IMG/VR virus record: IMGVR_UViG_3300046710_000261
Location: 64,001 to 128,000 of that record
DNA from: a virus
Lineage: Duplodnaviria > Caudoviricetes
Direction: 5' to 3' (one strand)
Length of the DNA stretch: 64,000 nucleotides
Under the pieces are notes generated by a model, which was given only the letters and a program-made list of their open reading frames with translations, was not told where the DNA came from and did not search any database. A program made the position numbers and the translations under genes. Shown one piece after another: positions 10,758-34,259 of the stretch. Each line of letters opens with the position of its first letter. Position 1 is the stretch's first letter.

Positions 10758-11630
10758 TTATCTCTTTGCAAAAGGAAGATTTTTTATCACCATTCCTGCT
10801 GCACCTTTATGGCCCCCTGCTGATATTGCACCTTTTTCTTCCCCTAATTTTTTTGCTAGTGCTGACACATCAATTATCTCCGAATAGAACGAGAGGGAAT
10901 AATTTGTTCCATCAAAAACATAGGATGCTACAAAATTATATTTTTTTAATAGGTCTCCAAATCCTTGAGAACCAAATCGGTAAAGATTGACTGCAAATCC
11001 TTTATGACCATAAACATCTATTTCATATCCATAAGATTTGATCATATCGTTGCAATAGTTGTTTCGATATTTTATACACGTATCTCCTGTTTCTACTATT
11101 TCATTTACCAAATCCTTTGCAAAGAATTGGTCGGTTTCCAGGAGCATTTCCCATATTTTCGCTTTTGGTTCTGTATTTGCCAATTTTAATCCTTCATAAA
11201 ATTGGAAACATCGTGGAGCAAATTTCAATGCCCATTTATCATAATCCCCAAGTAATTGTATTGCTTCAGGAACGGGTTCTGCCGCCACAATATATTTCCA
11301 TGTCAATTCACATGCTGCATTCATTTTGTCTCTGAAATCTCTCTTGCCATTTATAAAATTATTATATGGATAATCTTTTGCTGTTGCATGATGGTCAATC
11401 CAGGTAATATATCCTGTCTTCTTTGAGACAGCATCCATTACTTCTGGTTTGAAAGAAAAATCAACAATTATTACTTCTTCATTTTTTCTTATATTATCAA
11501 CATTGATTGGGTCTTTATAATCGGCTTCTATAAATTCACATCCTCTTATTCCAGTTGCTTTTATTTTATAAATATAAATGATGGCGGCTGAACATCTTCC
11601 ATCCAAATCGTTATGAAAGAACACTTTCAT
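10758..11630 (-). CDS. DHH/DHHA1 phosphoesterase
   Basis: HNDLDG, IVDFS, IDHH, GGHKGAAG. Confidence 0.88.
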   Translation of the reverse strand: MKVFFHNDLDGRCSAAIIYIYKIKATGIRGCEFIEADYKDPINVDNIRKNEEVIIVDFSFKPEVMDAVSKKTGYITWIDHHATAKDYPYNNFINGKRDFRDKMNAACELTWKYIVAAEPVPEAIQLLGDYDKWALKFAPRCFQFYEGLKLANTEPKAKIWEMLLETDQFFAKDLVNEIVETGDTCIKYRNNYCNDMIKSYGYEIDVYGHKGFAVNLYRFGSQGFGDLLKKYNFVASYVFDGTNYSLSFYSEIIDVSALAKKLGEEKGAISAGGHKGAAGMVIKNLPFAKR

Positions 11631-11772
11631 TTTTTGATCTCCTTTTTCTCATTCAGATTATTTTCACTATAACCAATTTTATATATTTTGGGATAATCTT
11701 TATCGTGCAACAATTCTGCTCCACTTGGAGTTTGTGTTCCCCATAGTTTATTCCCTTGCTTTATTTTTTTGC

Positions 11773-12396
11773 TCACTTATTCAATTCCTCCTCCAACCAT
11801 TTCACGATGTCTGGTTGGCTATAAAGTTTTGTATGATAGAGATTGTAATTTTGAACTATAAGAGGCACAACCATTCTTTCTTCATCGGTAAGAACAAGAT
11901 AATGCTTTCCTATAAGCCAAGATACTGTAAATTTGTCTATATTGTTTTCAATGAAATGTCTGATAGGCATACTTTCCCCTTCTCTGAAAAGACAGTATTG
12001 TTTTATCATTGATAGGTCTTCTCTATGGGGTCGTATTCTCATATACCCTTTTATAAATTCGATAGATTTTTTTATACCAATCAAATTCAAATCCCATTCC
12101 CGTTTAATTATCTTATCCCTTTCGATATACAACCGCAATATCCTGCGGTCAAAGAATTTTGTGTAGGTGAAATTCTTTTTGAACAATTCAAAACCGCATT
12201 GGAAAAATCTTTCAGGGGCTATGTTTCTCCAAATAGTATTGAAATGCCCTGTTGCCATTTCCAATGCTTCCCTGTTTCTTGGGTTCATTTTGGTTTCAAG
12301 ATAATTGTCAAAATCTTTGGGAATACGATATGGCCTGTTCAAACAATCTGATTGTGCTATTCTGAATAATAAATAAATATCATATGTCGATAACAT
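11773..12396 (-). CDS. Hypothetical protein, possibly gp59 helicase-loader-like
   Basis: 207 aa, helical and aromatic-rich, near gp32; assignment by size and context only. Confidence 0.35.
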   Translation of the reverse strand: MLSTYDIYLLFRIAQSDCLNRPYRIPKDFDNYLETKMNPRNREALEMATGHFNTIWRNIAPERFFQCGFELFKKNFTYTKFFDRRILRLYIERDKIIKREWDLNLIGIKKSIEFIKGYMRIRPHREDLSMIKQYCLFREGESMPIRHFIENNIDKFTVSWLIGKHYLVLTDEERMVVPLIVQNYNLYHTKLYSQPDIVKWLEEELNK

Positions 12397-15890: not shown

Positions 15891-16157
15891 TTAAATTACT
15901 AACTTCTTTGGGATTTTATCGCTTTTCCCATGCGCAGTGTCTTTGAGAATGTCTTGTTTTTCTCTCAACATTCTCATAAATTTCTTATACTCTTCAATTA
16001 TATCTTGTCTTGTTGCTCGTAACGATTTATTTTTTCCATACCTGATTTCGCCTATATTGTTCATACAAAAAATACACATCTTGTCTTCGGGATGTTTTGG
16101 AACCTCATCTACAAAATCAGGAGGGAAAAATGCATTACATTTCACGCATTTCGGCAT
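15891..16157 (-). CDS. Small zinc-finger protein
   Basis: CVKC...CIFC; GGAG RBS. Confidence 0.65.
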   Translation of the reverse strand: MPKCVKCNAFFPPDFVDEVPKHPEDKMCIFCMNNIGEIRYGKNKSLRATRQDIIEEYKKFMRMLREKQDILKDTAHGKSDKIPKKLVI

Positions 16158-16221
16158 ATTTCACTCCTATATTGTCTTATTATATCATAAACAGAATAAT
16201 CTGTCAATACTTATTTATAAA

Positions 16222-16743
16222 TTATCTATGGCCTCCGCCGTGTCCTCCACCATGAGAACCACCACCACCATGACCACCACCATAACCACCGCCGTGTCCA
16301 CCGCCATAACCGCCACCGTGACCTCCCCCTCTTGGAGCATACCCTCTATGGAATCCATAACTATGTCCAGGGAAGGAACGATGTCCCCATGATCCGCTTA
16401 TTCCGCGTCTTCCATACCAACCTCCATTATAGTATCTATAATAGAAACCACCATACCAGAAATAAGGATATGAACTATATGGATAATAATAATATCCTGG
16501 ATATCCTGGATATGCTTCAAATTCAGATGGGGGAATCTGACCTTGAACGTCTTCCATATCTGGTGGAGGAATTTGTGATTGAACTTGGGCGACAACAACT
16601 GGTTGTTGAACAACAACAGCGGGTCTTAAGACTTCTGTTGCAATGATAGTGCCTGCTATCCCACCAAGGATAAATGGTGCGGCTCCTCTACACCCGACTA
16701 ATGCTAACACCAAAATCAAAACCAAAAAAATTGTTCTTTTCAT
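16222..16743 (-). CDS. Lipoprotein with Tyr-rich core and Gly/His-repeat tail
   Basis: Lipobox LVGC; GGGHGGGY repeats. Confidence 0.75.
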   Translation of the reverse strand: MKRTIFLVLILVLALVGCRGAAPFILGGIAGTIIATEVLRPAVVVQQPVVVAQVQSQIPPPDMEDVQGQIPPSEFEAYPGYPGYYYYPYSSYPYFWYGGFYYRYYNGGWYGRRGISGSWGHRSFPGHSYGFHRGYAPRGGGHGGGYGGGHGGGYGGGHGGGGSHGGGHGGGHR

Positions 16744-16758
16744 AGTAATTCCCCTTTT

Positions 16759-17127
16759 TTATAATTGGTTCATTAAGTAACTAAACCCGACAATGGGTTC
16801 TAGTCCCAGTTTTACAATAGGTTTTAAATACCCATGTTCTGTAATAAATTCTGCTACAACAGGTGAATGTTTGTAATATTCATCTGTTAGGAATGTACCA
16901 ACACTATTTGTCAATAGGTATTTATCCCTGAACTCTCTCAAAATCATCACATGAGGATGATTTACATCGTCATAGGTTGCGGTTGCAATAAAGCACCATA
17001 TTCCAGGCCCACGACCACCGTGACCACCACGGGCATATGGGGTAAGACTTGTCTGACAATCTGCAATCACTACACCCAAGAATGAGATACATAAAAATAA
17101 ACACACCGCATACATCAGTTTTTTCAT
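16759..17127 (-). CDS. Secreted CFI-box-CTERM domain protein
   Basis: Signal peptide; CFIATATY...LREFRDKYL...YYKHSP..A..I. Confidence 0.8.
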   Translation of the reverse strand: MKKLMYAVCLFLCISFLGVVIADCQTSLTPYARGGHGGRGPGIWCFIATATYDDVNHPHVMILREFRDKYLLTNSVGTFLTDEYYKHSPVVAEFITEHGYLKPIVKLGLEPIVGFSYLMNQL

Positions 17128-17142
17128 TTTACTTCCTCCTGT

Positions 17143-17292
17143 TTACCAACAAATTAAGGTCACGCCCTGCCATTGTCTTTCTGTGTCCCTTTCAATTATA
17201 GTAATTGTATTGTCGGGGCATCGAAGAGTTTTGACTGTCGCGCAACCAGTAAATAAAACAATCATTATCAGAAATATAATCATCTTCTTCAT
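17143..17292 (-). CDS. 49-aa lipoprotein (not in ORF track)
   Basis: MKKMIIFLIMIVLFTGCATVK...; GGAG RBS; TTGACA-17-TATAAT promoter upstream. Confidence 0.7.
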   Translation of the reverse strand: MKKMIIFLIMIVLFTGCATVKTLRCPDNTITIIERDTERQWQGVTLICW

Positions 17293-17402
17293 ACTCCACT
17301 CCTATGTATATTATACCATATCTGTAAGGAAATGTCAATAAACAAAAAAAGGGAACTGATTTCTCAATTCCCTTTCAGTTTCTCTACTATGATCCTTTTC
17401 GT

Positions 17403-17978
17403 TTACCTTTTCTTTTGAGGAACTGGTCTCGGAGCAGGTCTTGCTGGCGCGGATTGTGGCGCAGGTCTATTGTGAATTTGCGGTGCTGGCCTTTGAGCAG
17501 GCGCGGGTCTATTGTGAATTTGCGGTGCTGGCCTTGGGGTATTATGTAGTGGTTCATGATGAATACCGGGACCGCGATTTATTCCTCCACGATGTTCATT
17601 TCGATAATTTGGATGATCATGATGAAATCTTTCAAAATGTCCACGGTGTCCATTATTCCAATGATCGTGATAAAAGCCTCTTTCACCAAATGGAACTCTG
17701 TGATGGAAATAATATGCTCCACTTCCTCCAATCGTGAAAAACGCTCCATCATAATAGAACACTGAAACTCCATCGACAATAAACGGCCCGTCATAAAATA
17801 TTTCGGGGGATGCTTCAGGTCCTGGTGCACCAATTGCCAAATCAACTTCTACTGGTTCGGAAACTGCCACTTCTCCTGTGGGGCCTGATACTTCAACACT
17901 TGATGGGCGAACCGACATGGCGCAACCCATAAAAACAAAAATTCCTGCTAACAAACCAAAAATCAAAATTTTTTTCAT
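17403..17978 (-). CDS. Lipoprotein with His/Pro-rich repeat tail
   Basis: Lipobox FMGC; PAPQIHNRPAP tandem repeat (about 17456-17535). Confidence 0.75.
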   Translation of the reverse strand: MKKILIFGLLAGIFVFMGCAMSVRPSSVEVSGPTGEVAVSEPVEVDLAIGAPGPEASPEIFYDGPFIVDGVSVFYYDGAFFTIGGSGAYYFHHRVPFGERGFYHDHWNNGHRGHFERFHHDHPNYRNEHRGGINRGPGIHHEPLHNTPRPAPQIHNRPAPAQRPAPQIHNRPAPQSAPARPAPRPVPQKKR

Positions 17979-18039
17979 TTTATTTTACCTCTTTTTTATT
18001 TTACGATATTGAAATCATTCCTTCTATTTAAGGAACTAT

Positions 18040-18630
18040 TCAATTCTTTTTTACTCTCTTCTTAATGAAGGGAACAATACCAACCATTCCGATACCAAGG
18101 AGCATCATAGTTCCTGGCTCAGGGACTGATTGATGGACAAGGAATTCTTGGGCAGTACCTCTGGTATCTGTTAGAATAGTCCATCCAGACCCATTGAATG
18201 TACCATAATTGTTTTGGGCAAGTGTAACATAATATAGGGTGTCTGAATCAGCATAATGGCCACCACTAAAATTCCAAATGGCTTGTTGAATAGAAACCTG
18301 ATTCCCCCCATTGTTATAAATGGAAGCAAGATAGCCCATCTCCAGGTATGCCATTGGATTTTTCAGATATGTTAAATCAAATGAGCCAGAATAGGTAGTG
18401 GTATTTGCCAACCATGACGTATTCAGATAGGATTCATGGTTGAAGTCAACACAGAAAGCATAAACATTTGAAATTCCATTTACTGTAAGGTAGTATGGGG
18501 CAATATAGTATTGTCCATTGTTAACCCCTCCTACTCCTGTCAGGGTAACATCTACCTGATCGGCTGGGGCAGCCATCGGCAGTAAAAATAGTGAAACCAA
18601 TGCAAGAATACAAATCAGAAAACGTTTCAT
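18040..18630 (-). CDS. PEP-CTERM sorting-domain surface protein
   Basis: Signal peptide; C-terminal VPEPGTMMLLGIGMVGIVPFIKKRVKKN. Confidence 0.9.
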   Translation of the reverse strand: MKRFLICILALVSLFLLPMAAPADQVDVTLTGVGGVNNGQYYIAPYYLTVNGISNVYAFCVDFNHESYLNTSWLANTTTYSGSFDLTYLKNPMAYLEMGYLASIYNNGGNQVSIQQAIWNFSGGHYADSDTLYYVTLAQNNYGTFNGSGWTILTDTRGTAQEFLVHQSVPEPGTMMLLGIGMVGIVPFIKKRVKKN

Positions 18631-18697
18631 CTCACTCTCCTTTTTTAATTTTTAAAAGGTGGGGACTAAATCCCCACCCTAGATTATGGTTGTCTGT

Positions 18698-19945
18698 TTA
18701 CTTAGGGCAACAATCTACGCCGGCGTCTCGTCCATCACAGATTTGATGCTGTACTTCTGTCTGGCCCTTTTCCGTCTGGAAGAAAACCACGATCATCGTG
18801 GCATCGTATACACGAGATCCCCATGAGTGCGCAATACCAGTACCACCGCCACCCGTAAGGCCATTCTCTTTCTCAGATCCACTTAATTGACTTTGCGTAT
18901 AGGCCAGTCCTAAACCAACCGTAGTTGAACTTGGCTCAGTCAGTTCGTTTTGGGTCAGGATAACAAATGCATTCCGACCACTCTGCATGGTAAGAAGTGC
19001 TGCTGTACCTACTAAATCGTCCGTAACTCCAGGCTCTCCAAAAAGCCATGGTTGCTTTGTGCGTAAATAGGCACGACCAATCAGCTTTGCATCCACAGGA
19101 ATATAGCTCAAGCGATTCACATAGTCAAACTCATACTTAAGCTCAACCGTCATTCTAACAGTAGACTGCACTGTACCCTTAACCAGCATCTTCGCATCTG
19201 CTTGGCAAAACTTTGTAGGAATACCAGAGGCATCCATCAATTCTTTCGGAAGAATAACCCAACCCTTGCCAGTGCCTTCATGTCTCTGAGTATTCATGGG
19301 ACCAGGCATCTCCAGATTATTCGTGAACTGTCTTCCCGTCCCAGGAGCAACCGCTGCCACGTTCTGAGTCAAAGACTGCTGAGGGGCAATCGTCTGGCCA
19401 TTATTCTGACCTTGAACTAAAGTAGGATTCATCGTTTGGGTATTGGTTTGTGTAGGTTTAACGATATTTACATTTTTAACATCGTTCTGTACGGCACCCG
19501 CTGCAATTGTGGAATTACCACTACCAACAATAGCTTGTCCCTGTTGCTGCTGTTGCTTCTGGCCCTGTTGCTGACCCTGAATATTGGTCATCTTCGGGTC
19601 AACGGTAATTTTCGGGTCAACGGTAACGGTGTTCTGCACTGCACCCTTCTGAATTGTAGCAGAAGGTGAAAAGTTCCCAATTCCATTACCAATATTATTG
19701 GTAGAGTTCCCGCTATCCCTTACAGAACCCCCTGTTGCTGATGCGTTTCCGCCTGTTAAGGTGTTAGTATTGGTAACGCTATTATTAGAATCCCCACCCT
19801 GGCCACCATTGCCGCCCTGGCCACCGTTGCCGCCCTGGCCACCGTTGTTTACTCCCCCATTGCCGATACCATTATCAGTAGCCAATGCAGGAATTGCGAA
19901 AATCAGCATTAACGCAAAAACCAATAAAACAATTTTCTTCAACAT
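18698..19945 (-). CDS. Secreted low-complexity (G/N/Q-rich) protein
   Basis: Signal peptide MLKKIVLL...PALA; GGQGGN repeats, polyQ; start reassigned to 19945. Confidence 0.75.
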   Translation of the reverse strand: MLKKIVLLVFALMLIFAIPALATDNGIGNGGVNNGGQGGNGGQGGNGGQGGDSNNSVTNTNTLTGGNASATGGSVRDSGNSTNNIGNGIGNFSPSATIQKGAVQNTVTVDPKITVDPKMTNIQGQQQGQKQQQQQGQAIVGSGNSTIAAGAVQNDVKNVNIVKPTQTNTQTMNPTLVQGQNNGQTIAPQQSLTQNVAAVAPGTGRQFTNNLEMPGPMNTQRHEGTGKGWVILPKELMDASGIPTKFCQADAKMLVKGTVQSTVRMTVELKYEFDYVNRLSYIPVDAKLIGRAYLRTKQPWLFGEPGVTDDLVGTAALLTMQSGRNAFVILTQNELTEPSSTTVGLGLAYTQSQLSGSEKENGLTGGGGTGIAHSWGSRVYDATMIVVFFQTEKGQTEVQHQICDGRDAGVDCCPK

Positions 19946-20114
19946 GTTTTTTCTCTCCTTCATATTTTTTTTCGGGTTATTTTTATGTCTTACCCTTGAC
20001 AAATTTTACTATTGGTGACAATCAAATAATCACCCTTTCAATTATTCAATAACCATTGTAGCATATTCTGATTGTATTGTAAACATATTTTTTCAAGAAT
20101 TTTACAATTCATTA

Positions 20115-21110
20115 TTATTCTTCATCTTTCAATAAATAGTCGTTATTCAGAATCTTTACAGATAATCTTCTCTTCAAGGCTTCACTGAAGCGATTTATGG
20201 TAGGTCGAATGACAATTCCTTCCCTTCTGTTTTGCGTTCCCTGATAAACACCTTTTGCCATTTCCAAAAGTTGTTCAATCGTGTGATTAAAAATAAAAAT
20301 GTCGGCAAGAGGAACCATTGGTATCTCATATCTGGTACAGAAATCCCTTAATTCGGGAAAGTCAAAGTATTCTTGTTTGTCAATATCCCAAACATCGAAT
20401 ATAAAAATTTCATGGCTGGTAAGTTGCATTCTGTTTTTCTGAATTGAGGGACCGCAAATTTCGCCCTGGATAGCAATGTTTCCGGCATCCTTTAATACGT
20501 CTTCGATGTTGAATTTTTTTGCTATCTGCCAGTAAAGCAATTCGTTTGTTTCTTTGTATCCCCAATTGCGAGAGCAAATCCAAATGTCTCCATCTTTGTT
20601 TATAAATGAACTGCTTGTTCCATCACACTTTACGGTAGAATAACATTCCACCCCTCGAAATTCTTCAATTACACCAGGATAACTTTGAATCCGTGGTTCA
20701 TCGGTCCTGGAAACATAAGCAGGGAAATTGCCTTTGATCTGTCCACGTAAGGAAGCAGGAATGGGTTTCTCATAATGAATGATGCCAAGAATTTCTGAAA
20801 CGTCTGTGTCTTCCAGAAATAATACGTTATCGGTTTCAGGAAGAATAGACATAGGAAAGACAATTCCTTGAGATAGATTTCCGCGAAGTTTTACTGTTTT
20901 TATCCTGAATTTCTTGTTTCTCAAAAATTCAAATGCAGGATTGCTGTCAGGCAGAAGACTATCAATCTCCACAAAGCAAATCAAATCCCCCACAGAGAAT
21001 TCGTTTCTTTTCGTGACGATCTGCCATCCCAAAACTTTGACAACATCTAAGTTATCAGAATTTTCAGCGGGACGAGTATCAAGAATTTTTTGGATTGTTG
21101 CTTCTCTCAT
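20115..21110 (-). CDS. ATP-dependent RNA ligase (DRB0094-type)
   Basis: N-terminal EIDS.LP...LRG..SQG; KCDGTS motif I, QGE, FDV, REGIVIR, K. Confidence 0.88.
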   Translation of the reverse strand: MREATIQKILDTRPAENSDNLDVVKVLGWQIVTKRNEFSVGDLICFVEIDSLLPDSNPAFEFLRNKKFRIKTVKLRGNLSQGIVFPMSILPETDNVLFLEDTDVSEILGIIHYEKPIPASLRGQIKGNFPAYVSRTDEPRIQSYPGVIEEFRGVECYSTVKCDGTSSSFINKDGDIWICSRNWGYKETNELLYWQIAKKFNIEDVLKDAGNIAIQGEICGPSIQKNRMQLTSHEIFIFDVWDIDKQEYFDFPELRDFCTRYEIPMVPLADIFIFNHTIEQLLEMAKGVYQGTQNRREGIVIRPTINRFSEALKRRLSVKILNNDYLLKDEE

Positions 21111-21310
21111 ATCTTAAACACACTTTTAGGAATTTCTACTTTGAATGGTTTATATTCAACACATTGGGCATCGGCCCCGACGGGAGCAAAACTACAATTC
21201 CCTGGTCCCCATCCCCCACCCCACGGTGCGGGTTGTTTGCCCCTTCAGTCTTTATGAAAGCAGTCACCACTGACTTCTGCACTACATATGAACAGTTTTT
21301 CTTCTTTCAC
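21107..21310 (-). CDS. Cys-rich 67-codon gene with in-frame TGA (candidate selenoprotein; not in ORF track)
   Basis: GTG start behind AAGGA RBS; TGA at codon 22 (21245-21247); frame ends in an ATGA overlap with the RNA ligase. Confidence 0.6.
21213..21232 (-). promoter_or_regulatory. Putative bacterial SECIS hairpin
   Basis: CCC-G-CACC[GUGG]GGUG-GGG; apical loop starts 20 nt after the UGA and begins with GU. Confidence 0.5.
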
Positions 21311-21312
21311 AA

Positions 21313-21510
21313 TTATCCTTCTTTTATTTCTTCTGTCTCTGACAATTCAATCCAGTCTCCATAATCACCACATCTTCGAAGATAATCATGACCGCCATCA
21401 GCAGAAACCATACCACACTTGCAAGTTTGGAAATCGTGACGATGCTTGCTCTCAATAACATCGTCACAAAACTTACATTGTATCCTGTTACGGATAATTT
21501 TCATTTTCAT
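21313..21510 (-). CDS. Small Cys-rich conserved phage protein
   Basis: IQCKFCDDVIESKHRHDFQTCKCG..SADGG.DYLRR. Confidence 0.7.
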   Translation of the reverse strand: MKMKIIRNRIQCKFCDDVIESKHRHDFQTCKCGMVSADGGHDYLRRCGDYGDWIELSETEEIKEG

Positions 21511-21533
21511 TTTGCTACTAAAACATCCTTTCT

Positions 21534-21749
21534 TTAGACTTTCTGATAATCAAAATTGTCTTTGATCTGCTCATTGAAAAATACTCCAGCGGATTCTGAA
21601 AACATAAACTCTGTTACCAATCCCTTCGGAACATCAAAGTATTGGTAAGTGTCTCCGCTCTGGAAACTGATTTCCAAAGTCTTGTTTTCTACATCATAAC
21701 CCACATCTTCAATCAATGAAGAATCCATTTCATAACTAACATTAATCAT
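21534..21749 (-). CDS. KTSC domain protein
   Basis: SSLIEDVGYD..LEISF.SG..YQYFDVP......SESAG.FFN..IK. Confidence 0.85.
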   Translation of the reverse strand: MINVSYEMDSSLIEDVGYDVENKTLEISFQSGDTYQYFDVPKGLVTEFMFSESAGVFFNEQIKDNFDYQKV

Positions 21750-21967
21750 AACGTCCTCCTATATTTTTTCTTTTGTTCTTCTTCCTTTATTCCTTCTTGG
21801 ATTTTGAACGCCTCTATTGCTTCATTACATTCATTTTCAGTCTTCCCGCACGGGCAAGCCCATTTTCTTTTCAATTCTTCTCTCGCGCGATTTCTTATTT
21901 TGTTTCCCCAAAGTATGTTTATCAATTCAAATATCATTTTATTCCAACTCCATAGGTATTTCTGCAA
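21746..21967 (-). CDS. Hypothetical protein
   Basis: ORF coupled to neighbours; CPCG...C. Confidence 0.45.
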   Translation of the reverse strand: MQKYLWSWNKMIFELINILWGNKIRNRAREELKRKWACPCGKTENECNEAIEAFKIQEGIKEEEQKKKYRRTL

Positions 21968-22319
21968 GGTCTTTTTCTACATCTTTTATTCTATTCTTGG
22001 GTAATTCCTTATTCTCATCAAGATATTTTTTTATAGCACCCGATATTGCACTTCGAGTTTTTTGGGAAGGAAAAGAAACTCTGCTCGCCTCTCGGGGAAT
22101 TTTGAAAAAGGTCAACCCAACAGAAAAACCAATTCTCTGTTTTGTCTCTCGTATCTCTGCTGCGTCTCCATTTCTGCCATTTTTAAGTTTGAAAGAAATA
22201 GTTGCCTGACCAGCATAAGTAAATCGTTTATATGTCTCATACCCGATGCCTGAAAATATCAACATACTCTTTTCATCTATCGGTATATATGGTATGCCTG
22301 TAACAGAATATTTTATCAT
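21939..22319 (-). CDS. Hypothetical protein
   Basis: ATGA overlap with the upstream gene. Confidence 0.55.
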   Translation of the reverse strand: MIKYSVTGIPYIPIDEKSMLIFSGIGYETYKRFTYAGQATISFKLKNGRNGDAAEIRETKQRIGFSVGLTFFKIPREASRVSFPSQKTRSAISGAIKKYLDENKELPKNRIKDVEKDLAEIPMELE

Positions 22320-22513
22320 TTTACACCATCACGATATTCTTTTATTTTTTCATCAGCAATTATTCTTGCTTTTGTATCATGGAATGTTCTATTGCTTTTA
22401 CATCGTGAGCATCCACCATGGTTACAGCAGGAACTATCAAAATTTCTGCTATCAAAACCAGGATAGGCCGTTCTCCAATCTTTTCTGTTAGGATATAAAT
22501 TGTAAAAACCCAT
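22316..22513 (-). CDS. Small Cys/His-rich basic protein
   Basis: FDSSCCNHGGCSRCKSNR; own TTTACA-17-TATAAT promoter. Confidence 0.65.
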   Translation of the reverse strand: MGFYNLYPNRKDWRTAYPGFDSRNFDSSCCNHGGCSRCKSNRTFHDTKARIIADEKIKEYRDGVK

Positions 22514-22563
22514 ATACTACCTTCCTATTTTATTATTATACCATAAACAAAGTAAATTGTAAA

Positions 22564-22650
22564 TGGAGGAAGAGGCGGGATTTGAACCCGCAAAGGTTTT
22601 ACCCCTGACAGTTTTCGAAACTGTTTGGCCTACCAAATGCCCACCCTTCC
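22564..22650 (-). tRNA. tRNA-Ser(CGA)
   Basis: GGAAGGG/CTCTTCC acceptor, ACAGT-TTCGAAA-ACTGT anticodon arm, long variable arm, GGTTCAAATCC T-loop, encoded CCA. Confidence 0.92.
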
Positions 22651-22848
22651 TTAATTTTTCAGGGCCAACGCTTGGCCGATCTTCAATTCTTTGATGAGAA
22701 TGATTTGCTCCCAAGTAAAATATTCTGAGAGTTCTTTTCGATGAACAATAATGTTTTCAATTTCTCGGCACTCGCTATCAATGGTGCGTTTCCAAAATTC
22801 ATCTTCTCCATGTCTTCTTACAGTTCTTCTTCTGTTTTCTGGTATCAT
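22651..22848 (-). CDS. Hypothetical protein
   Basis: ORF with GGAG RBS. Confidence 0.5.
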   Translation of the reverse strand: MIPENRRRTVRRHGEDEFWKRTIDSECREIENIIVHRKELSEYFTWEQIILIKELKIGQALALKN

Positions 22849-22873
22849 TGTCTTTCTCCCTCTCCTATTTTAT

Positions 22874-23095
22874 TTATATCTCTGAAGTCAATTTTTCAAT
22901 TTCTTTCTTGAAATCATCAAATGGGTCAACCAAAGACCTTTTCGTCTTTATGAATTGGATATGTTGACACTCTATCCGCTTGAATATCCATTTCGGACAG
23001 GAACACCCATAATTACCATTACGGTCAATAGCAACGGTCCGGATGCTATCTGTACCTTCAACTTGCCACCTTTGTACCCATCTATCTCTCCGCAT
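22874..23095 (-). CDS. SWIM zinc-finger protein
   Basis: CSCPKW.....CQHI. Confidence 0.7.
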   Translation of the reverse strand: MRRDRWVQRWQVEGTDSIRTVAIDRNGNYGCSCPKWIFKRIECQHIQFIKTKRSLVDPFDDFKKEIEKLTSEI

Positions 23096-23333
23096 TTTTT
23101 TCTCTCTTACACTTTAGCATTCTGATGAACTGCACTTCAAAGAATGCATTTCCCGCCGTTTTCATATCTTCGGTCATATAAATCTTGAGTGATCTATCAC
23201 GGAGTTTTTCTATACCCCATTTCTGCTTTCCGAAAACATTGTATAAAAGAAACATTTCCAGAAATCTCAGCCTCTTTGCTTTGGGTATTCTTCTGATCTG
23301 TTTTCGATCTAATAAATTTCGTGAGATAAACAT
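23082..23333 (-). CDS. Hypothetical protein
   Basis: ORF in packed early operon. Confidence 0.55.
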   Translation of the reverse strand: MFISRNLLDRKQIRRIPKAKRLRFLEMFLLYNVFGKQKWGIEKLRDRSLKIYMTEDMKTAGNAFFEVQFIRMLKCKREKNAER

Positions 23334-23334
23334 T

Positions 23335-23640
23335 TTATTTTCCTTCCTTGGTTAGAATGTTATTCCAGGCTCTTGCTTTTTCCATTCTTTCCTGGATTTC
23401 ATATCGCGTGATTTCGAGAATTTTCTCACAAGTCTCTTCTGCCAGACAAAGATTGCCGCCCAATAATCCCAAAAGATATTCAATCTTCAACTCTGACACC
23501 ATGGTGTCTTTATTGGTGAGATTGGCCTCTCCAAAATCATCGACAAGTTTACATGTGCAGATGGCCAGTTGATTTATCGCTATTTGCAAGCGGGAAATTC
23601 GAGCGTGAATTTTTATTGGATTTTTCTTGGATATTCGCAT
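23335..23640 (-). CDS. Hypothetical protein
   Basis: ORF in packed early operon. Confidence 0.55.
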   Translation of the reverse strand: MRISKKNPIKIHARISRLQIAINQLAICTCKLVDDFGEANLTNKDTMVSELKIEYLLGLLGGNLCLAEETCEKILEITRYEIQERMEKARAWNNILTKEGK

Positions 23641-23855
23641 TTTATTACTTCCTCCAAAATCAAATTATTTCGCTCTGCCAGATCATTCCGAAATTGGTCA
23701 AGGTCAATTATGTTATTCTTTGAATCGCGGAGTACCCATCGACCAGCCATGTCATTTCCATTGGGTGTTTGGCCAAATTCTCGGCGCATTATAGTCAATC
23801 CACTATCTGAAGTATATATGCTGTCGGATACATGCTTCAAAATTATTTTATCCAT
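23613..23855 (-). CDS. Hypothetical protein
   Basis: ORF with RBS. Confidence 0.55.
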   Translation of the reverse strand: MDKIILKHVSDSIYTSDSGLTIMRREFGQTPNGNDMAGRWVLRDSKNNIIDLDQFRNDLAERNNLILEEVIKCEYPRKIQ

Positions 23856-23865
23856 ATTTCCTTCC

Positions 23866-24111
23866 TTAAATGTAGTTCAATGCCAGCAACCAAGAGGGCA
23901 AACCGTGTTGGCAATGTCCATCAGGTTCGACCTTGCAACCATCAAGGGCCTTTGCCACACCGTCAAAGGACCATTTTTCCAGGGTCTTGAGGGTAGGCGG
24001 CTTCTTACAAACAATGGGTTTCACGGCGAAGGCATGCGCCACGGCGTATTGTTCAAGGGTAACATCTTCTTTCAACTTCCTGACACCGCGTTCAGCAGAA
24101 TAAACGTACAT
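23866..24111 (-). CDS. Hypothetical protein (DGC.VEPDG.C.HG..SWL motif)
   Basis: Motif-rich ORF in operon. Confidence 0.65.
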   Translation of the reverse strand: MYVYSAERGVRKLKEDVTLEQYAVAHAFAVKPIVCKKPPTLKTLEKWSFDGVAKALDGCKVEPDGHCQHGLPSWLLALNYI

Positions 24112-24113
24112 TT

Positions 24114-24323
24114 TTATTTCCTTTCATTCCATTTCAATAATGCTTCCATTTCCATATGCTCTTGTGTTCCTTTGGCATAAATCCAAGGGCCACATGCGCC
24201 ACATTCAACACAAATTACATTGACGGGTGTTCCTTCTCTGTCTGGGGTGCCAAATTGATAATCAATATTGGTTTTTTTACAAAATGGACATTTTTTTACT
24301 TTCATTTTTACCTTCTCTCCCAT
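24114..24323 (-). CDS. Lar-family restriction-alleviation-like zinc finger
   Basis: CPFC...VICVECGACGP...A...WNER. Confidence 0.7.
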   Translation of the reverse strand: MGEKVKMKVKKCPFCKKTNIDYQFGTPDREGTPVNVICVECGACGPWIYAKGTQEHMEMEALLKWNERK

Positions 24324-24514
24324 CCAATTCTTTTTGAGGCAGCGACATAGGCATCATTATCTTGATCTCGGAGTTCAGACAGCCTTTTCAGCCAATACGG
24401 TCCTGTCTCTCCCATAAACCATTTATCACCCACAGGGGCGAAGCGAACACGGCCAAGAAGTTGTTCAACGTCAAGGCTGTCAATATATTCCTTATTTTCT
24501 TTAGTCAAGTCCAT
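24308..24514 (-). CDS. Hypothetical protein
   Basis: Start MDLTKENK; C-terminal ASKRIGW. Confidence 0.6.
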   Translation of the reverse strand: MDLTKENKEYIDSLDVEQLLGRVRFAPVGDKWFMGETGPYWLKRLSELRDQDNDAYVAASKRIGWERR

Positions 24515-24516
24515 TT

Positions 24517-24915
24517 TTACTTTCCTTCCTTTACACAAAATTGATCTGACAAATACCATCCACTATTTACAAATTTGACCAGGCCGAAAATTTCAGCCTC
24601 CCGCAGAGAACCATGAGAATTTGGCCTCCAGCCTTTTCCTTTCAGAGCAATGGCATCAAGACCAGGATTTTTACTTATGATGGAGAGCATCTTTTCATAT
24701 TGAATTTTGTATTCCCATCGGCCATCACGCTTACCCCATAAATTAAGCAAGGTCTGAAGGTCTTTGTGAGTATGGCAAAAAATTCTCTGAACACCCGAAT
24801 CACCCTTTACGGTATGTTTCCAAGTATAGAAAAATTCTCGCAGACTTAATTCGAGTGCTTCCCTTTCCAAGAAAGTGTAGGTCACTCCAGCTTCGATGTA
24901 ATGTTTTTCGTACAT
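24517..24915 (-). CDS. Hypothetical protein
   Basis: ORF in operon. Confidence 0.55.
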   Translation of the reverse strand: MYEKHYIEAGVTYTFLEREALELSLREFFYTWKHTVKGDSGVQRIFCHTHKDLQTLLNLWGKRDGRWEYKIQYEKMLSIISKNPGLDAIALKGKGWRPNSHGSLREAEIFGLVKFVNSGWYLSDQFCVKEGK

Positions 24916-25058
24916 TATTTTCCCCTACTTTTGTTTTCGTTTATAATTGCCATGTATCCTTCAAACATCGCATCTTCGGGAGTAGATATTCTTTCACCCA
25001 CACAAAATTCCTTCAACCACCACCAAATCAATCCGGAAATCTTTTTCACTTTTTTCTC

Positions 25059-25280
25059 CTATTCAATCCGCGCATCGAAGGCCATGCTGATAACTGGCTC
25101 GGTATAACTGACAGATACTTTCTTTCCTACAATGTCTTCTTTCTTGAAATCAATGAGACCAGGCTCATCAAAGAAACTGAATTTGATGCGTTCATCCATC
25201 CCATCTTCATCCACGCAAACATGAACATCTTCTTCCTTGTCATATTCTTTCACGAAAAAATACTGTCTCATTTTATTCAT
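25059..25280 (-). CDS. Hypothetical acidic protein
   Basis: ORF in operon. Confidence 0.5.
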   Translation of the reverse strand: MNKMRQYFFVKEYDKEEDVHVCVDEDGMDERIKFSFFDEPGLIDFKKEDIVGKKVSVSYTEPVISMAFDARIE

Positions 25281-25410
25281 TCCTTTTCAAATATGCTTTG
25301 TGACAAATCTTTTTGTGTGATTGCCATTCCCATTTGGGAATGAATTTTCGACAACCTTTACACCACCATGTATATTTTCTTTTCAGCCCTTTGCCTTGCA
25401 TTTTTTTCTC

Positions 25411-25749
25411 TTATCTGTAAATGACAAATTCTTTTTCTGCTAAAGGAACCAAACCAAATTGTTTCATGACTGATTTCCACGGCCTTCCATGTCCCCAATA
25501 TTTTCGGTCAATCCAAGTTTTACAATGGGCAACTTCATGGGCAATTGTGTCTTCGATTTCTTCGGGATGAAGTCTAAGATGAAATCTTGAGACCTGGATA
25601 GCAAGAAAATTTCCAATTTTCCAGGTTGTTCCCCATGCATGGGGAAGTTTTCTGGTAATTCCAAAACGGATTCTTGAAAGGGGAAGTCCTGCGATTTCCA
25701 TGTACTCTTCAAAAGCCTTTTCGATTTCCTTGTCAATTGTCATTTTCAT
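25411..25749 (-). CDS. SprT-like zinc metalloprotease
   Basis: DTIAHEVAH...GHGRPWKSVM. Confidence 0.8.
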   Translation of the reverse strand: MKMTIDKEIEKAFEEYMEIAGLPLSRIRFGITRKLPHAWGTTWKIGNFLAIQVSRFHLRLHPEEIEDTIAHEVAHCKTWIDRKYWGHGRPWKSVMKQFGLVPLAEKEFVIYR

Positions 25750-25755
25750 ATATAG

Positions 25756-25815
25756 ATTATAACAAATTTTGAAAGTATTGTCAAGAAAAATCTTTCATAA
25801 TGATTTCAAGAGGTT
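25756..25815 (-). promoter_or_regulatory. Strong sigma70-type early promoter with conserved 37-bp upstream element
   Basis: TTGACA(25784-25779)-17-TATAAT; element shared with 28661-28697 and 63862-63898. Confidence 0.8.
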
Positions 25816-25933
25816 GGATAGTAAAATAGGTAGGTAATTTTATTGAGGTTTTTTGTATTGTGGGGTAATGGTTTTGTATTACCCCACCAAGAAAGTCCAG
25901 CCACAGGGCAATTTTGAGCGATTTTTGGTATCT

Positions 25934-26038
25934 TTAAGGGAAAACCATGCATGACCCGATCAAATAGAGTATACCGAAAATAACCAAACCTAAAAAACAT
26001 CCCCACAAAAATTTTAGGCCACTTACACCGTTTGCCAT
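25934..26038 (-). CDS. 34-aa membrane peptide (not in ORF track)
   Basis: MANGVSGLKFLWGCFLGLVIFGILYLIGSCMVFP, AAGGA RBS, followed by hairpin 25860-25887. Confidence 0.5.
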   Translation of the reverse strand: MANGVSGLKFLWGCFLGLVIFGILYLIGSCMVFP

Positions 26039-26067
26039 TTTTATCCTTTTTACCTTTTCTGCCCTTT

Positions 26068-26679
26068 TTATTCAAACCAGACTGAAAGTACCAGATTTTT
26101 CTCTTTCTCCAATGTTTCGGCTTTCGGTGAAAAATCCTCTTTCCAGTTGTTTTCTTTCTTTCCAAAAAAAGTTTCGGGATTTGGTTTCCTTTTCCCATTT
26201 GTCAGGGCAATTTTTAAACTCGTTTCTCCATGTTCCAATTGTGTCAGGATGCAGCAACCCAAGAGAAATTTTTTGACAACCCTTTTCAGAACGGTAAAGG
26301 TAATATTGTACCCGAAGAAAAAAGTGTAACCACGTTCAAAGTCTCCCCTCTTATCGGTGATTGAAACTTCCAAGCAAAGAGGAAAGCCGATGGTATTTGC
26401 ATAACTTGCACGAGAAGACCATGGACCTTTCAATACCTTTTCGCCCTCTTTGGTTTTGATGGTAAAAGAAGAACCACCAAATCCATTGCGATTTTTATCA
26501 CTCCCGTCATGGGAATAAAATTTCACCCATCCCTCTTTGTTACGAGCAAACCAAAGACCTTTATTATACCGATAAAGAAAATCGGCATTGTTAGGAAATT
26601 CATCCACCAGAAGCATGAGCCGTGGGGAATTATCCCATTTCTCTGCCCAATCCATTTTTGCATCAAGAATTTTTGCCAT
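26068..26679 (-). CDS. Hypothetical protein (GFGG...LKGPWSS motif)
   Basis: 203-aa ORF with GGAG RBS. Confidence 0.65.
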   Translation of the reverse strand: MAKILDAKMDWAEKWDNSPRLMLLVDEFPNNADFLYRYNKGLWFARNKEGWVKFYSHDGSDKNRNGFGGSSFTIKTKEGEKVLKGPWSSRASYANTIGFPLCLEVSITDKRGDFERGYTFFFGYNITFTVLKRVVKKFLLGCCILTQLEHGETSLKIALTNGKRKPNPETFFGKKENNWKEDFSPKAETLEKEKNLVLSVWFE

Positions 26680-26693
26680 TATTTTTTCTCCTA

Positions 26694-27125
26694 TTATCTC
26701 ACCTTTTCGGAAGTATAATTTCCCCTGATTTCCCGATGGTAAAAACTACCAGCAGAAGAGGCGGAAAGTAAATCTTGGGCAAGGTACAAGGGAACATCTG
26801 AATATTTGTAAGATGCACCGCTGATGAAATTGATAATCAATTCAACTTTGGGAGAATCCACATTGGGTTGTGGCCTGTCATCAAATTCCACTGATTGAAT
26901 GTTAGACGACTCGACTCCATAAATCATCCTTCTCGGCGTTCTCTGTGCTTCAGCAATGGTCAGGCCAGTAATTAAAGCGAAAACACTATCCGATTGCGTT
27001 TTGATCCCCCCAATGATGTTCCTGAGTTTTTCATCATCATTTATTGGGGTATTATCCAATTCATCCAAAAGACTTCTGATGGTTTCCGATACGTTGAGAA
27101 TTTTTCCAGCTTCTTTGATCTTCAT
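26694..27125 (-). CDS. Protein with C-terminal KTSC domain
   Basis: ESSNIQSVEFD...F.SG.SYKYSDVP......ASSAGSFYHREIRG. Confidence 0.8.
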   Translation of the reverse strand: MKIKEAGKILNVSETIRSLLDELDNTPINDDEKLRNIIGGIKTQSDSVFALITGLTIAEAQRTPRRMIYGVESSNIQSVEFDDRPQPNVDSPKVELIINFISGASYKYSDVPLYLAQDLLSASSAGSFYHREIRGNYTSEKVR

Positions 27126-27137
27126 TTTTATCCTTTC

Positions 27138-27551
27138 TTATTCACCGATCTGAATGTTTTGGTTCAATGACAGGAAGGTACGCAACATCTTATCATTATC
27201 GGTAAGAATTTGAAATTGCGTATATCTATTGCATCCACCAGTATAATCCTTCATATTCGTGATCGTTCGATAGAGAATATTGTACTGTGGATTGCTGTGG
27301 AACTGATCTTTGTTCATCGTGATATAAATCCCATTGCCTTCACTCCACATACCCATAAGGGTAAGATCACCAGAGCAGGCAGGGCCAGCATGATTGAAAC
27401 GAACATCAAATTCCTTCAATTCCAGCACAGAGGCCAATTCCCGCATGGCCTTTTTGCCCGTCCGGCAAAATCTTCGCTTCAATTCAGAATTGTGGTAGGG
27501 GTCTTCATTACTCAACATCAGGGCAGATAATTTTTTCAGACTATCCATCAT
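27138..27551 (-). CDS. Hypothetical protein (N.AGPACSGD..L...YR....KDYTGG.N motif)
   Basis: ORF with RBS; motif resembles mobile-element early proteins. Confidence 0.65.
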   Translation of the reverse strand: MMDSLKKLSALMLSNEDPYHNSELKRRFCRTGKKAMRELASVLELKEFDVRFNHAGPACSGDLTLMGMWSEGNGIYITMNKDQFHSNPQYNILYRTITNMKDYTGGCNRYTQFQILTDNDKMLRTFLSLNQNIQIGE

Positions 27552-27560
27552 TTTCCTTTC

Positions 27561-28112
27561 TTATGAAAGAATTTGTGAAAGAACCTTTGCGGTCCTTTTA
27601 TCGGTTTTTTTGCTGAATTGCATATTGGTTATGCTGATAGGTGAAGAAACATTTTTTTGGGTATTTTCAAAGGGCTTATTCCAATGACCGATGTTCAGAT
27701 GCATGTAGAAATTGCAATTGAAATAATCGGTTTGAATATCAGACTTGTCCCAATGATATTGACCGATAATCGCGTATGTCCTTCTCATTGCAGTCCAGGC
27801 TTTATGGGTTAGTGGAGTACCATTACAAAATGGATCATGTTCATCATACTCATCCCTTAATTGGTATTGGTTCAATTGAGCATATCCTTTTTCTTGGAGG
27901 TATTCAATAGTCTTTTTGTGATCTTCACTGGTAGGATTGAATCGGGAAATGTCATACCGAAACACATCAAAGGGGGCTTTCATCAAGGAAACATGAAGAG
28001 ATTGACCCATAGAGTATCTTTGAATGGTAACAGAAAACGTGGCTTTCGGAAATTCCCTTTTGAGTTGATTTCTGACTTTCAGCGCGATTTCTTTGATGCC
28101 TGTGTATTCCAT
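27561..28112 (-). CDS. LPD29-like (large polyvalent protein-associated) domain protein
   Basis: A..VR..LK..FP...FSV...YSMG.S; D.SDIQTDYF. Confidence 0.7.
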   Translation of the reverse strand: MEYTGIKEIALKVRNQLKREFPKATFSVTIQRYSMGQSLHVSLMKAPFDVFRYDISRFNPTSEDHKKTIEYLQEKGYAQLNQYQLRDEYDEHDPFCNGTPLTHKAWTAMRRTYAIIGQYHWDKSDIQTDYFNCNFYMHLNIGHWNKPFENTQKNVSSPISITNMQFSKKTDKRTAKVLSQILS

Positions 28113-28115
28113 TTT

Positions 28116-28274
28116 TTACTCCTTCACGATTTCAAATTGAATGGCAGATACTTCGCGTTCATCATATTGCCCAGCAAATAAAAACTCTCCGGTATTAGCA
28201 ACAGAAAAACCATCCTTCTCCAATTTTTCTCTTACGATTTTTTCTACTTCTTCGATAGACAATACGATTTTCAT
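28116..28274 (-). CDS. Small hypothetical early protein
   Basis: Start MKIVLSIEE behind GAGG; TTGACA-17-TATAAT at 28325-28297. Confidence 0.55.
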   Translation of the reverse strand: MKIVLSIEEVEKIVREKLEKDGFSVANTGEFLFAGQYDEREVSAIQFEIVKE

Positions 28275-28334
28275 TTTTTCCTCACTTTCTAAATTTATTA
28301 TACCAAATTTTGGTTTCTGTGTCAAGTCTTTTTT

Positions 28335-28571
28335 TTAGATATTTTCCCCCGCTCTCATTTCTATAATTTCATTGTCAAGATTATCAATTTTTTTTTGTTG
28401 TTCATCCACCAATTTTTTGAAAGATTTTCTTAACCTATTGATTCTTTTATCTAATATTTCAATGTCTCTTACTTCATTTCCAGAAAATTCGGAAATTGAG
28501 GTGATTGTTTCTTGCCTGTAATCTTCTAACAACATATTGTATTTATTCATCAATTTTTTGTTTATGTCCAC
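28335..28571 (-). CDS. Small coiled-coil early protein
   Basis: GTG start behind GAGGG; TTGACA-17-TATAAT at 28622-28594. Confidence 0.55.
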   Translation of the reverse strand: MDINKKLMNKYNMLLEDYRQETITSISEFSGNEVRDIEILDKRINRLRKSFKKLVDEQQKKIDNLDNEIIEMRAGENI

Positions 28572-28593
28572 TTTTCCCTCACTTTCTAATATC

Positions 28594-28842
28594 ATTATAC
28601 CAAAATTTTGCTTGCCTGTCAAGTCTTTTTTTCATTTTTCTTCAAATTATTTTGGGGTATAACTTCTTGAAATCATTATGAAAGATTTTTCTTGACAAAA
28701 TATTCAATTTTTGGTATACTAGATAATAGAAAGTGAGAGAAAATGTTTTTAGAAATTATGTTTTATTGCTTTTTGATCAATGTAATATTTTTTGAAATTG
28801 GCAAAAAAATTTCTTGACATTGCATTTTTTGTATGGTAGAAT
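28594..28842. promoter_or_regulatory. Divergent early promoter cluster at the strand switch
   Basis: Minus: TTGACA 28622-28617/TATAAT; plus: TTGACA 28692/TATACT 28715 and TTGACA 28814/TAGAAT 28837, all with 17-nt spacers. Confidence 0.8.
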
Positions 28843-28863
28843 AAGAGAAAATGGAGGGAAGAA

Positions 28864-29049
28864 ATGAAAGTGAATATGGAAAATGTGGTTGTTCCTTTTT
28901 GGGCAAAATTTGCAGTTTTATTTGAAGATTGTTCTTTTGTCTTCTTTGGTTCAAAACGTGGAACTGCTGAAAGTGTTTCAAATCATTGGAATGCCAAAGG
29001 CTGGAAGAATGAAGTTAAACCCGTAAATCAAGATGAATCAGTGAAATAA
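28864..29049 (+). CDS. Hypothetical early protein
   Basis: GGAGG RBS downstream of promoter. Confidence 0.55.
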   Translation: MKVNMENVVVPFWAKFAVLFEDCSFVFFGSKRGTAESVSNHWNAKGWKNEVKPVNQDESVK

Positions 29050-29289
29050 ATGGAAGTCAAAAGAGATAGAATTACTTTTTGGTTTGGTAAGTTGACATTT
29101 GAAGTCTATTGGATAGATTTTCAATGGTCAAAAACAACCAAGGGATTTTTTGCCCCCACAATGCTTTTGTATCGTCCCAATAAGAGTTGGGAATGGCAAT
29201 GGGCAGTTGTGGCAAGAGTTTTAGGTTTCGGTTTCGGTTTGTCCTGGATGCATGTTAGTAACCCAAACATCAAGAAGGAAAGTAAATAG
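29050..29289 (+). CDS. Trp-rich hypothetical protein
   Basis: Abuts the previous gene. Confidence 0.55.
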   Translation: MEVKRDRITFWFGKLTFEVYWIDFQWSKTTKGFFAPTMLLYRPNKSWEWQWAVVARVLGFGFGLSWMHVSNPNIKKESK

Positions 29290-29492
29290 TGTTTTTCATT
29301 GGCAGCAAACATATAATCACAAAGCAATGGTTTGATTTTTTCAATCCTGATGCCAAAAAATTGAGGGATAATGAGGCAAAGAGATTGAAGAAAGAGGGAT
29401 TTAAAGTCAAAAAAGAAAACTGGAATTGCAGTATTGAACGTGGAAGCAAATGTTTCAAACTTCGGGCAGAAAGACCCATATCTTTCAAATAA
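29289..29492 (+). CDS. Hypothetical protein
   Basis: Coupled ORF. Confidence 0.5.
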   Translation: MFFIGSKHIITKQWFDFFNPDAKKLRDNEAKRLKKEGFKVKKENWNCSIERGSKCFKLRAERPISFK

Positions 29493-29504
29493 GGAGAATA
29501 AATA

Positions 29505-29963
29505 ATGTTACTGGAAAAAGGAACACTCTGTATCGTCAAGCGTGGATATAAATGGTATCGTGCCCGTTTCGGTGGAAAGCGTGATGCGTTTTATGGCATG
29601 GACAGAATTTCCTCTTTATCCGAAACGAGAGGTAAGAAATTTGTCACTCTCGCGGCTTATCTTCGCCTGAATAAAATCAAAGAGAATGAGGAAAAAATTC
29701 TCAAGGGATTTGCTGTTGAACGGCTTTACATCAAATTTAAGAAACCCGTCAGGGTGAAGAAGGCGAAGAGGGTAAAGGCAGTGAATAAGGAAACACTCAA
29801 CCCTGGTGAGAAGATTTCCGACAAAAAGGTCGAAAAACATTGGTGGTCAGCATCGAATGAAATTTGTTTATCCTGCACCAAGTCTTGCAAACAGAGTGGT
29901 TTTGTTACCATCGTTCAATGCAAGTCATATACCAAGAAAGCAAAAGAGGAAGCGAATGCTTGA
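29505..29963 (+). CDS. Basic protein with C-terminal Cys cluster
   Basis: AAGGAG RBS; CLSCTKSCKQS...C. Confidence 0.6.
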   Translation: MLLEKGTLCIVKRGYKWYRARFGGKRDAFYGMDRISSLSETRGKKFVTLAAYLRLNKIKENEEKILKGFAVERLYIKFKKPVRVKKAKRVKAVNKETLNPGEKISDKKVEKHWWSASNEICLSCTKSCKQSGFVTIVQCKSYTKKAKEEANA

Positions 29964-30147
29964 TTTAGGATCATATGTTTGTTGCAAAAATTGCAAGAAT
30001 TATGAGAGTTACCATAACGGATATTCCCATCGTTGTCCTGCCCTTCGCCATGAAATTGATATTGACATTGGTGGAGATGGATACGTAAGGGAAGTTGAGC
30101 CTTCCGATGAGAATACCTTTTTCTGCCGATTATTTGAGAAGGTATAA
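29956..30147 (+). CDS. Small Cys-rich protein
   Basis: CKNCKNY...C...FFCRLFE. Confidence 0.55.
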   Translation: MLDLGSYVCCKNCKNYESYHNGYSHRCPALRHEIDIDIGGDGYVREVEPSDENTFFCRLFEKV

Positions 30148-34255: not shown

Positions 34256-34259
34256 GACG

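Follow-up and report, generated by a model that had tools for sequence, protein, structure and literature searches.

We examined a stretch of 64,000 nucleotides (nt) from a virus of the Caudoviricetes, hereafter the window, which corresponds to bases 64001–128000 of the 155,948-bp virus record IMGVR_UViG_3300046710_000261. The record is ∼70% complete and has a GC content of ∼35%; positions given below are those of the window unless the record or a contig is named. On the minus strand of the window, a KTSC-domain gene is followed by a DUF7695 gene, a gap of 202 nt that gene callers leave empty, and an RNA ligase gene. The gap is occupied exactly by a small cysteine (Cys)-rich open reading frame (ORF) interrupted by an in-frame TGA, and it is the reading of this codon, possibly as selenocysteine (Sec), that is considered here. 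An earlier note on this DNA, made from the letters alone, had described a GTG-started frame filling the gap, with a ribosome-binding site, an internal TGA at 21245–21247 and an ATGA overlap with the ligase gene. Translation of 21107–21310 on the minus strand confirmed all of these features and showed the internal TGA to be the only one in the 67-codon frame. The final TGA of the small ORF (21109–21107) overlaps the ATG of the ligase gene (21110–21108). Coordinates of the features are collected in Table 1.

Table 1. Features of the small ORF locus and of its surroundings in the window
Feature	Position	Strand	Details
Small Cys-rich ORF	21107–21310	minus	GTG start, 67 codons plus stop, internal TGA at codon 22
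In-frame TGA	21245–21247	minus	aligns with the near-invariant family Cys (C-x4-P-H) and with TGC in contig L077
SECIS-like stem-loop	21204–21242	minus	from RNA folds; outer pairs 21242–21241 with 21205–21204; core 21235–21210
G-rich quasi-repeat	21200–21222	minus	four G runs; forms the 3′ arm of the hairpin; encodes a Trp/Gly-rich stretch replacing the His-containing stretch of the family
AAGGA ribosome-binding site (read from the sequence)	21316–21320	minus	5 nt before the GTG
RNA ligase gene	20115–21110	minus	PF09414 and PHA02142 OB domain; own ribosome-binding site weak
DUF7695 gene	21313–21510	minus	product of 65 aa, assigned by Pfam; same neighbour order in L077; stop codon 21315–21313
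KTSC-domain gene	21749–21534	minus	
Sigma-70-like promoter (consensus match only)	22535–22563	minus	strong; TTTACA, 17 nt, TATAAT, with TG
PEP-CTERM-tailed secreted protein	18040–18630		in the GC-richer island
Gly/Asn/Gln-rich protein	18698–20002		434 aa; in the GC-richer island

The small ORF has numerous relatives in the same phage. A six-frame search of the phage genome with the read-through product of the small ORF returned ten intact look-alikes, and a search with a hidden Markov model (HMM) of the family extended this set to more than 20 small genes in tandem at 23–31.6 kb of the record, together with scattered single copies. The small ORF is a dispersed member; its HMM score of 65.7 bits falls between those of intact paralogues. 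The family is defined by an N-terminal ..L-[FY]-I-C, a variable middle rich in Cys and histidine (His) that contains C-x4-P-H, and a tail of the form C-[VI]-E-Y..F-K..I-P-K..F-K-I. The small ORF fits this description in its N-terminus, in its spaced Cys residues and in its C-terminal tail, which ends at the ATGA junction. The 45 codons 3′ of the TGA are open and retain the tail, with neither a frameshift nor a second stop, and this part of the ORF holds no in-frame restart codon. The C-x4-P-H motif and the Cys pair that follows it are not reproduced, the small ORF having U/stop-x4-P-A and one later Cys missing.

In an alignment of 21 sequences (A1), the column of the TGA contains Cys in 19 of the 20 paralogues and a gap in the remaining one. 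The earlier note had proposed a search for homologues with Cys or a conserved TGA at codon 22; Cys was found there both in these paralogues and in the syntenic orthologue described below. The series of Cys residues to which that note had drawn attention is also present; it is really the metal-ligand-like pattern of the microprotein family, from which the His and one Cys have been lost. The small ORF genuinely belongs to this Cys/His-rich phage family, and in this one member a near-invariant Cys codon has turned into UGA. Pfam and PHROGs contain no model or match for the family, and Foldseek against the PDB gave no match for the microprotein, for which the AlphaFold model is moderate (predicted local distance difference test score of 74). 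The members are small Cys/His-rich proteins that probably bind metal.

The family tail doubles as a gene junction: the P-K-E codons provide an AAAGAGG-type ribosome-binding site and the end reads ..ATATGA, which includes the next ATG. Such junctions were seen, for example, in L020 (record positions 22001–33000) at L020 positions 3333, 3515, 3709, 6719 and 7988, and in the window at 21107–21110. Part of the conserved tail may thus be kept as a translational-coupling cassette and not as a peptide. Eight further family members on contigs L105 and L106 have no in-frame stop. On L105, a 17.6-kb ENA phage contig, three tandem members at 9819–11854 lie just upstream of genes for a cpYpsA-domain protein and an RNA ligase, so the neighbourhood link between the family and RNA ligase recurs.

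Among 1.84 billion representative proteins, a profile search detected no more than 56 family members. One of these is P0139, whose gene is on contig L077 (JGI; 988 nt). It is flanked there by a DUF7695 gene and by the beginning of an RNA ligase gene and, on account of these neighbours, is the syntenic orthologue of the small ORF. The L077 phage is moderately diverged from that of the window, with 87% nucleotide identity in the DUF7695 gene and 77% in the ligase gene, and shares the ATGA-type junction between the small ORF and the ligase. In the DNA alignment, L077 has TGC at the position of the TGA. The flanks are conserved, with R-x-K-x-P directly after this codon and a nearly identical tail in the same frame. 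Between them, ∼10 codons are wholly different, being an AT-rich, His-rich stretch in L077 and the G-rich quasi-repeat in the window. The orthologue carries the motif C-x4-P-G-H-H and starts with ATG, as compared to GTG in the TGA allele. Given the TGC and the AT-rich codons of L077, both the TGA and the hairpin that follows it are derived in the window lineage, where they arose by at least two separate events.

The ∼30 nt 3′ of the UGA have been remodelled into a GC-rich stem-loop whose geometry is that of a bacterial selenocysteine insertion sequence (SECIS). This segment folds as described in the earlier note, with the loop 20 nt after the UGA. The loop, GUGG (21224–21221), is closed by an upper stem of 4 bp (21228–21225 with 21220–21217), which is followed by a G·G mismatch and three pairs; the energy of the hairpin is −14.1 kcal/mol. 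Its 5′ arm comes from the G-rich quasi-repeat together with codons ahead of it that are changed in comparison with L077. The published consensus for bacterial SECIS elements (bSECIS; PMC13188914) specifies a loop of 3–9 nt, an upper stem of 4–16 bp, a G in the first two loop positions, a distance of 16–37 nt from the UGA to the loop and a minimum free energy of −7.5 kcal/mol or lower. With its 4-nt GUGG loop, 4-bp upper stem, 20-nt distance and energy of −14.1 kcal/mol, the hairpin falls inside all four constraints of this model, and in this respect the proposal of a SECIS-like element stands.

We then considered how exceptional this arrangement is. Across the genome, 110 of 6642 TGA triplets (1.7%) are accompanied by a hairpin of the bSECIS model, 13 of them (0.2% of the triplets) at −14 kcal/mol or lower; none of the other such pairs in the record is in a coding context. 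In a comparison of the sequence after the homologous codon in 22 family members, the TGA-bearing one had the highest GC content (0.71 versus 0.33–0.56) and the lowest fold energy (−18.5 versus −3.4 to −12.8). Over the first 40 nt 3′ of the TGA the GC content is 72.5%, a level that is reached or exceeded in only three 40-nt stretches of the 156-kb record. Besides the G tract, the record has just one other G-quadruplex-type motif, and no donor copy of the tract occurs elsewhere in the genome. Drift in a genome of 35% GC would not be expected to make such a segment. The other G-quadruplex-type motif is at 23711–23735 (plus strand) of the record, in an apparently non-coding stretch inside the microprotein array. 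A search of Rfam at E-values up to 10 gave chance matches only and no SECIS family. The hairpin was also considered as a transcription terminator, which was rejected as there is no U tract after it.

The stability of the hairpin is less exceptional. Among dinucleotide shuffles of the 61-nt piece, 45 of 200 folded at least as well (z = −0.73), so the hairpin is not unusually stable for its composition and its pairing adds no evidence beyond the GC-rich composition itself. This result favours a rival explanation in which the TGA marks a null allele: with 20–30 members in the family, this copy would be redundant, and its inactivation would leave only a 21-residue peptide. By this route, a short GC-rich patch would have taken the place of the ligand stretch that contains the His, and the Cys codon would have changed by transversion from TGC to TGA. 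The fit to the SECIS model would then be incidental to base pairing between the G-rich run and a C-rich run close by. Losing one member of so large and hypervariable a family would cost little, and the orthologue itself lacks another ‘invariant’ Cys. Conservation of the C-terminal tail could be explained without its translation, since the tail is also the ligase initiation region, and the absence of a gene call in the gap also accords with a broken gene.

Other properties of the ORF are harder to reconcile with inactivation. Only 2 of the 28 single-base nonsense paths in the ORF produce a TGA at SECIS spacing, one of them being the TGA observed; a random nonsense mutation that followed a pre-existing GC-rich patch and gave this spacing is thus unlikely but not negligible. 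A nearly unique GC-rich patch with no donor is unlike AT-biased decay, and the 45 codons free of frameshifts and further stops also speak against inactivation. Early termination would, in addition, uncouple a ligase gene whose own ribosome-binding site is weak. We regard the null allele as a serious contender, though one that we are inclined to doubt.

The same TGA and hairpin are present in contigs from X3 (another peat study), X4 record 4 (a virome study), L119 (JGI) and L120 (Logan; possibly identical with one of the coded runs), the sample sources being peat, pond and virome metagenomes. The TGA allele has therefore been assembled in at least four samples, and an assembly error was rejected as the source of the TGA: independent assemblies retain it. 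This persistence without change across several samples also counts against a null allele.

The X4 strain of the TGA allele differs by three single-nucleotide polymorphisms (SNPs). One is synonymous and lies in the ligase gene; the other two lie after the TGA and are non-synonymous (A46V and Q49R). Both SNPs 3′ of the TGA within the TGA-allele clade thus change the protein, which favours the null allele. A more diverged strain that co-occurs in the virome sample (X4 record 5; ∼85% identical in the ligase start) has the 145 nt at 21160–21304 exchanged for 148 letters that cannot be aligned, a length change that preserves the frame. In this comparison, the middle of the small ORF changes much faster than its ends.

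Further TGA-bearing relatives were sought by several routes. Window positions 20000–22400 had no blastn match in the phage collection. Translated scans of IMG/VR with the read-through protein and with the orthologue found none, DNA patterns of the conserved tail found no relatives, and a protein word search gave no scored homologue. Ligase-anchored searches of IMG/VR and the JGI metagenomes yielded 58 loci, of which none had a family member adjoining the ligase; the nearest ligase among them was 61% identical.

Recoding of the TGA by means other than Sec was also considered. UGA is the leakiest of the stop codons, and phages are known to use read-through of UGA, as in the A1 protein of Qbeta. 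A near-cognate tRNA for Trp or Cys could read the codon independently of Sec, perhaps aided by the hairpin or by an RNA G-quadruplex, so that a small and fixed full-length fraction would keep ligase translation, through coupling, at a low level. The rarity of the G-quadruplex-type motif, the retained ATGA coupling to the ligase and the tRNA-Trp and tRNA-Cys carried by the phage itself would all suit such leakage. A Trp residue at the site of the near-invariant Cys would probably disrupt the fold, however; bacteria have no established stimulatory element of this kind, the SelB model is matched specifically by the spacing and the loop G, and the record contains no opal-suppressor tRNA. Leaky read-through is therefore judged improbable.

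Other forms of recoding fare worse. The phage is T4-like and its record has 36 tRNA genes, one with an aberrant anticodon loop, which would be in keeping with a reassigned TGA, a phage suppressor tRNA or hopping of the T4 gene-60 type. With respect to the first of these, TGA terminates 81 of 282 chosen long ORFs (∼29%) and the coding cover under code 11 is ∼89%. The statement in the earlier note that TGA is a true stop elsewhere was therefore correct, and reassignment was rejected. A suppressor tRNA was rejected as no tRNA has a UCA anticodon. The aberrant tRNA-like gene lies at 128534–128605 of the record (534–605 nt past the end of the window), has an 8-nt anticodon loop (CAUUGCAA) and was left unnamed by ARAGORN; it reads as Ala(UGC)-like with one extra loop base, and is not an opal suppressor. 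Bypass of the T4 gene-60 type was rejected because the single downstream GAC on which a ribosome could land does not share the frame of the conserved tail, and because the orthologue has homologous codons directly 3′ of the TGA position, which argues that these codons are meant to be read. We consider this group of explanations scarcely credible.

If Sec is inserted, the decoding machinery would have to be that of the host, because the phage record contains no tRNA-Sec, selA, selB or selD. A possible clue to the host is a GC-richer island at window positions 16000–20100 (40–44% GC as compared to ∼34%), which may be host-derived. When one genome per species was scanned, eight of nine matches to the PEP-CTERM sorting tail encoded in this island were in Desulfuromonadales/Geobacteraceae. 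An order-wide protein search following this lead gave identities of only 31–42%, and when window positions 20001–40000 were compared at the DNA level with 239 genomes from the candidate order, the only matches were two short ones outside any repeat array. Given these low identities and the lack of a spacer-like match, the link to Desulfuromonadales, which is the only taxonomic host lead, is weak. Five genomes of this order (G001–G005) were searched for tRNA-Sec, selB and selD, and all five had the three genes above the cut-offs. These genomes also carry FdhA genes with an in-frame TGA, and in two of them SelD likewise has an in-frame TGA. Geobacter species have been reported to have eight selenoproteins each (PMC1794560).

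The proposed mechanism is as follows. The promoter at 22563–22535 heads the co-oriented gene string that ends in the small ORF and the ligase gene, and from its match to the consensus it is likely to drive this string. (A tRNA-Ser(CGA) gene is located at 22564–22650 on the minus strand, with the near-consensus sigma-70-like promoter directly after it.) Following transcription from this promoter, ribosomes would initiate at the GTG and arrive at the UGA at codon 22, where the stem-loop at 21242–21204 would offer its GU loop, ∼20 nt downstream, to host SelB·GTP·Sec-tRNA(Sec). Sec would be placed at position 22, translation would run on through the conserved C-terminal tail, and the ligase would be initiated by coupling at the ATGA junction. 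The binding of SelB to the hairpin, the decoding of Sec by the host and the coupling of the ligase to read-through are steps that we infer from the arrangement of the locus. Translation of the ligase might by the same reasoning depend on selenium, as suggested by the ATGA overlap and the weak ribosome-binding site of the ligase.

Several observations weigh against insertion of Sec. The only orthologue found is a Cys form in which the hairpin is not conserved, a point that the earlier note had named as counting against Sec. In the searches made, the TGA was found in one lineage only, with no second TGA-bearing relative and no covariation. The TGA allele has lost the family His (PH to PA) and one later Cys, which also fits decay, and has GTG where the orthologue has ATG. 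All of these points also favour the null allele. The small ORF also lacks the CxxU/UxxC redox motif, which is the context of most reported Cys-to-Sec conversions (PMC1794560). To these should be added the unexceptional stability of the hairpin, the two non-synonymous SNPs, the absence from the phage record of Sec genes and of any tRNA with a UCA anticodon, and the weakness of the host lead.

Insertion of Sec at the UGA by host SelB is nevertheless the reading that we favour, because the Cys/TGA pair has conserved flanks, the fit to the consensus is full and the GC-rich segment is exceptional and derived; the downstream frame and the ATGA junction are, furthermore, intact and the allele persists across samples. 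The proposal of SelB-dependent insertion made in the earlier note therefore receives support from the Cys/TGA pair, from the persistence of the allele and from the fit to the bSECIS model, but not from conservation of the hairpin. We hold it tentatively, at a little below an even chance. The fuller account, in which a T4-like phage of an anaerobic peat bacterium has a genuine selenoprotein with a ligand Cys converted to Sec, its own SECIS and a ligase whose expression depends on host selenium and SelB, is rather unlikely to be correct in all its parts.

No phage-encoded selenoprotein was found in the searchable literature, where a tRNA-Sec predicted in Bacillus phages comes closest, and a 2026 review of prokaryotic selenoproteomes mentions neither phages nor viruses. 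If the Sec reading is true, a known bacterial mechanism would be seen with a new carrier and in a protein context that is also new, beside a Cys orthologue, and phages would be shown to exploit the host SelB pathway. The conversion of Cys to Sec and the birth of a SECIS would have been caught together, which would give a rare view of the origin of a selenoprotein gene, and Sec would be found in a non-redox, metal-ligand setting. Since gene callers omit this ORF, such genes would be missed systematically by phage annotation pipelines. If the ORF is instead a null allele, it serves as a warning that a broken gene can satisfy both of the standard criteria, a Cys/TGA pair and a fit to the bSECIS model.

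The small ORF resembles bacterial genes with a SECIS inside the ORF, for which E. coli fdhF is the prototype and bSECISearch provides the model (PMC13188914), in having a UGA at a conserved Cys codon and a 3′ stem-loop within the ORF, with a small loop starting with GU, a distance of 20 nt and an energy well below −7.5 kcal/mol. Unlike bacterial selenoprotein genes, it is carried by a phage with no Sec genes, it encodes a 67-residue Cys/His microprotein and not a CxxU/UxxC redox enzyme, and its UGA and hairpin have been seen in a single lineage only, without covariation. Counting from the U of the UGA, the loop G is at nt 23 in the E. coli SECIS and at nt 24 in the phage. The SECIS elements of FdhA and SelD in G001–G005 have spacings of 17–23 nt, loops of GUU, GGUCU, GGC or UGC, and GC-rich upper stems of 5–8 bp that are sometimes bulged, with fold energies similar to that of the phage hairpin. 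The geometry of the phage hairpin is inside the range of these elements; there is no sequence similarity between them, and the host link rests on the PEP-CTERM tail only. Among phages, the closest comparison is with the Basilisk-like Bacillus phages, in which tRNA-Sec genes have been predicted (PMC6145125). Those phages have a predicted tRNA-Sec and no selenoprotein gene, whereas the phage described here has a candidate selenoprotein gene and no tRNA-Sec; both hint at contact between phages and the selenocysteine system.

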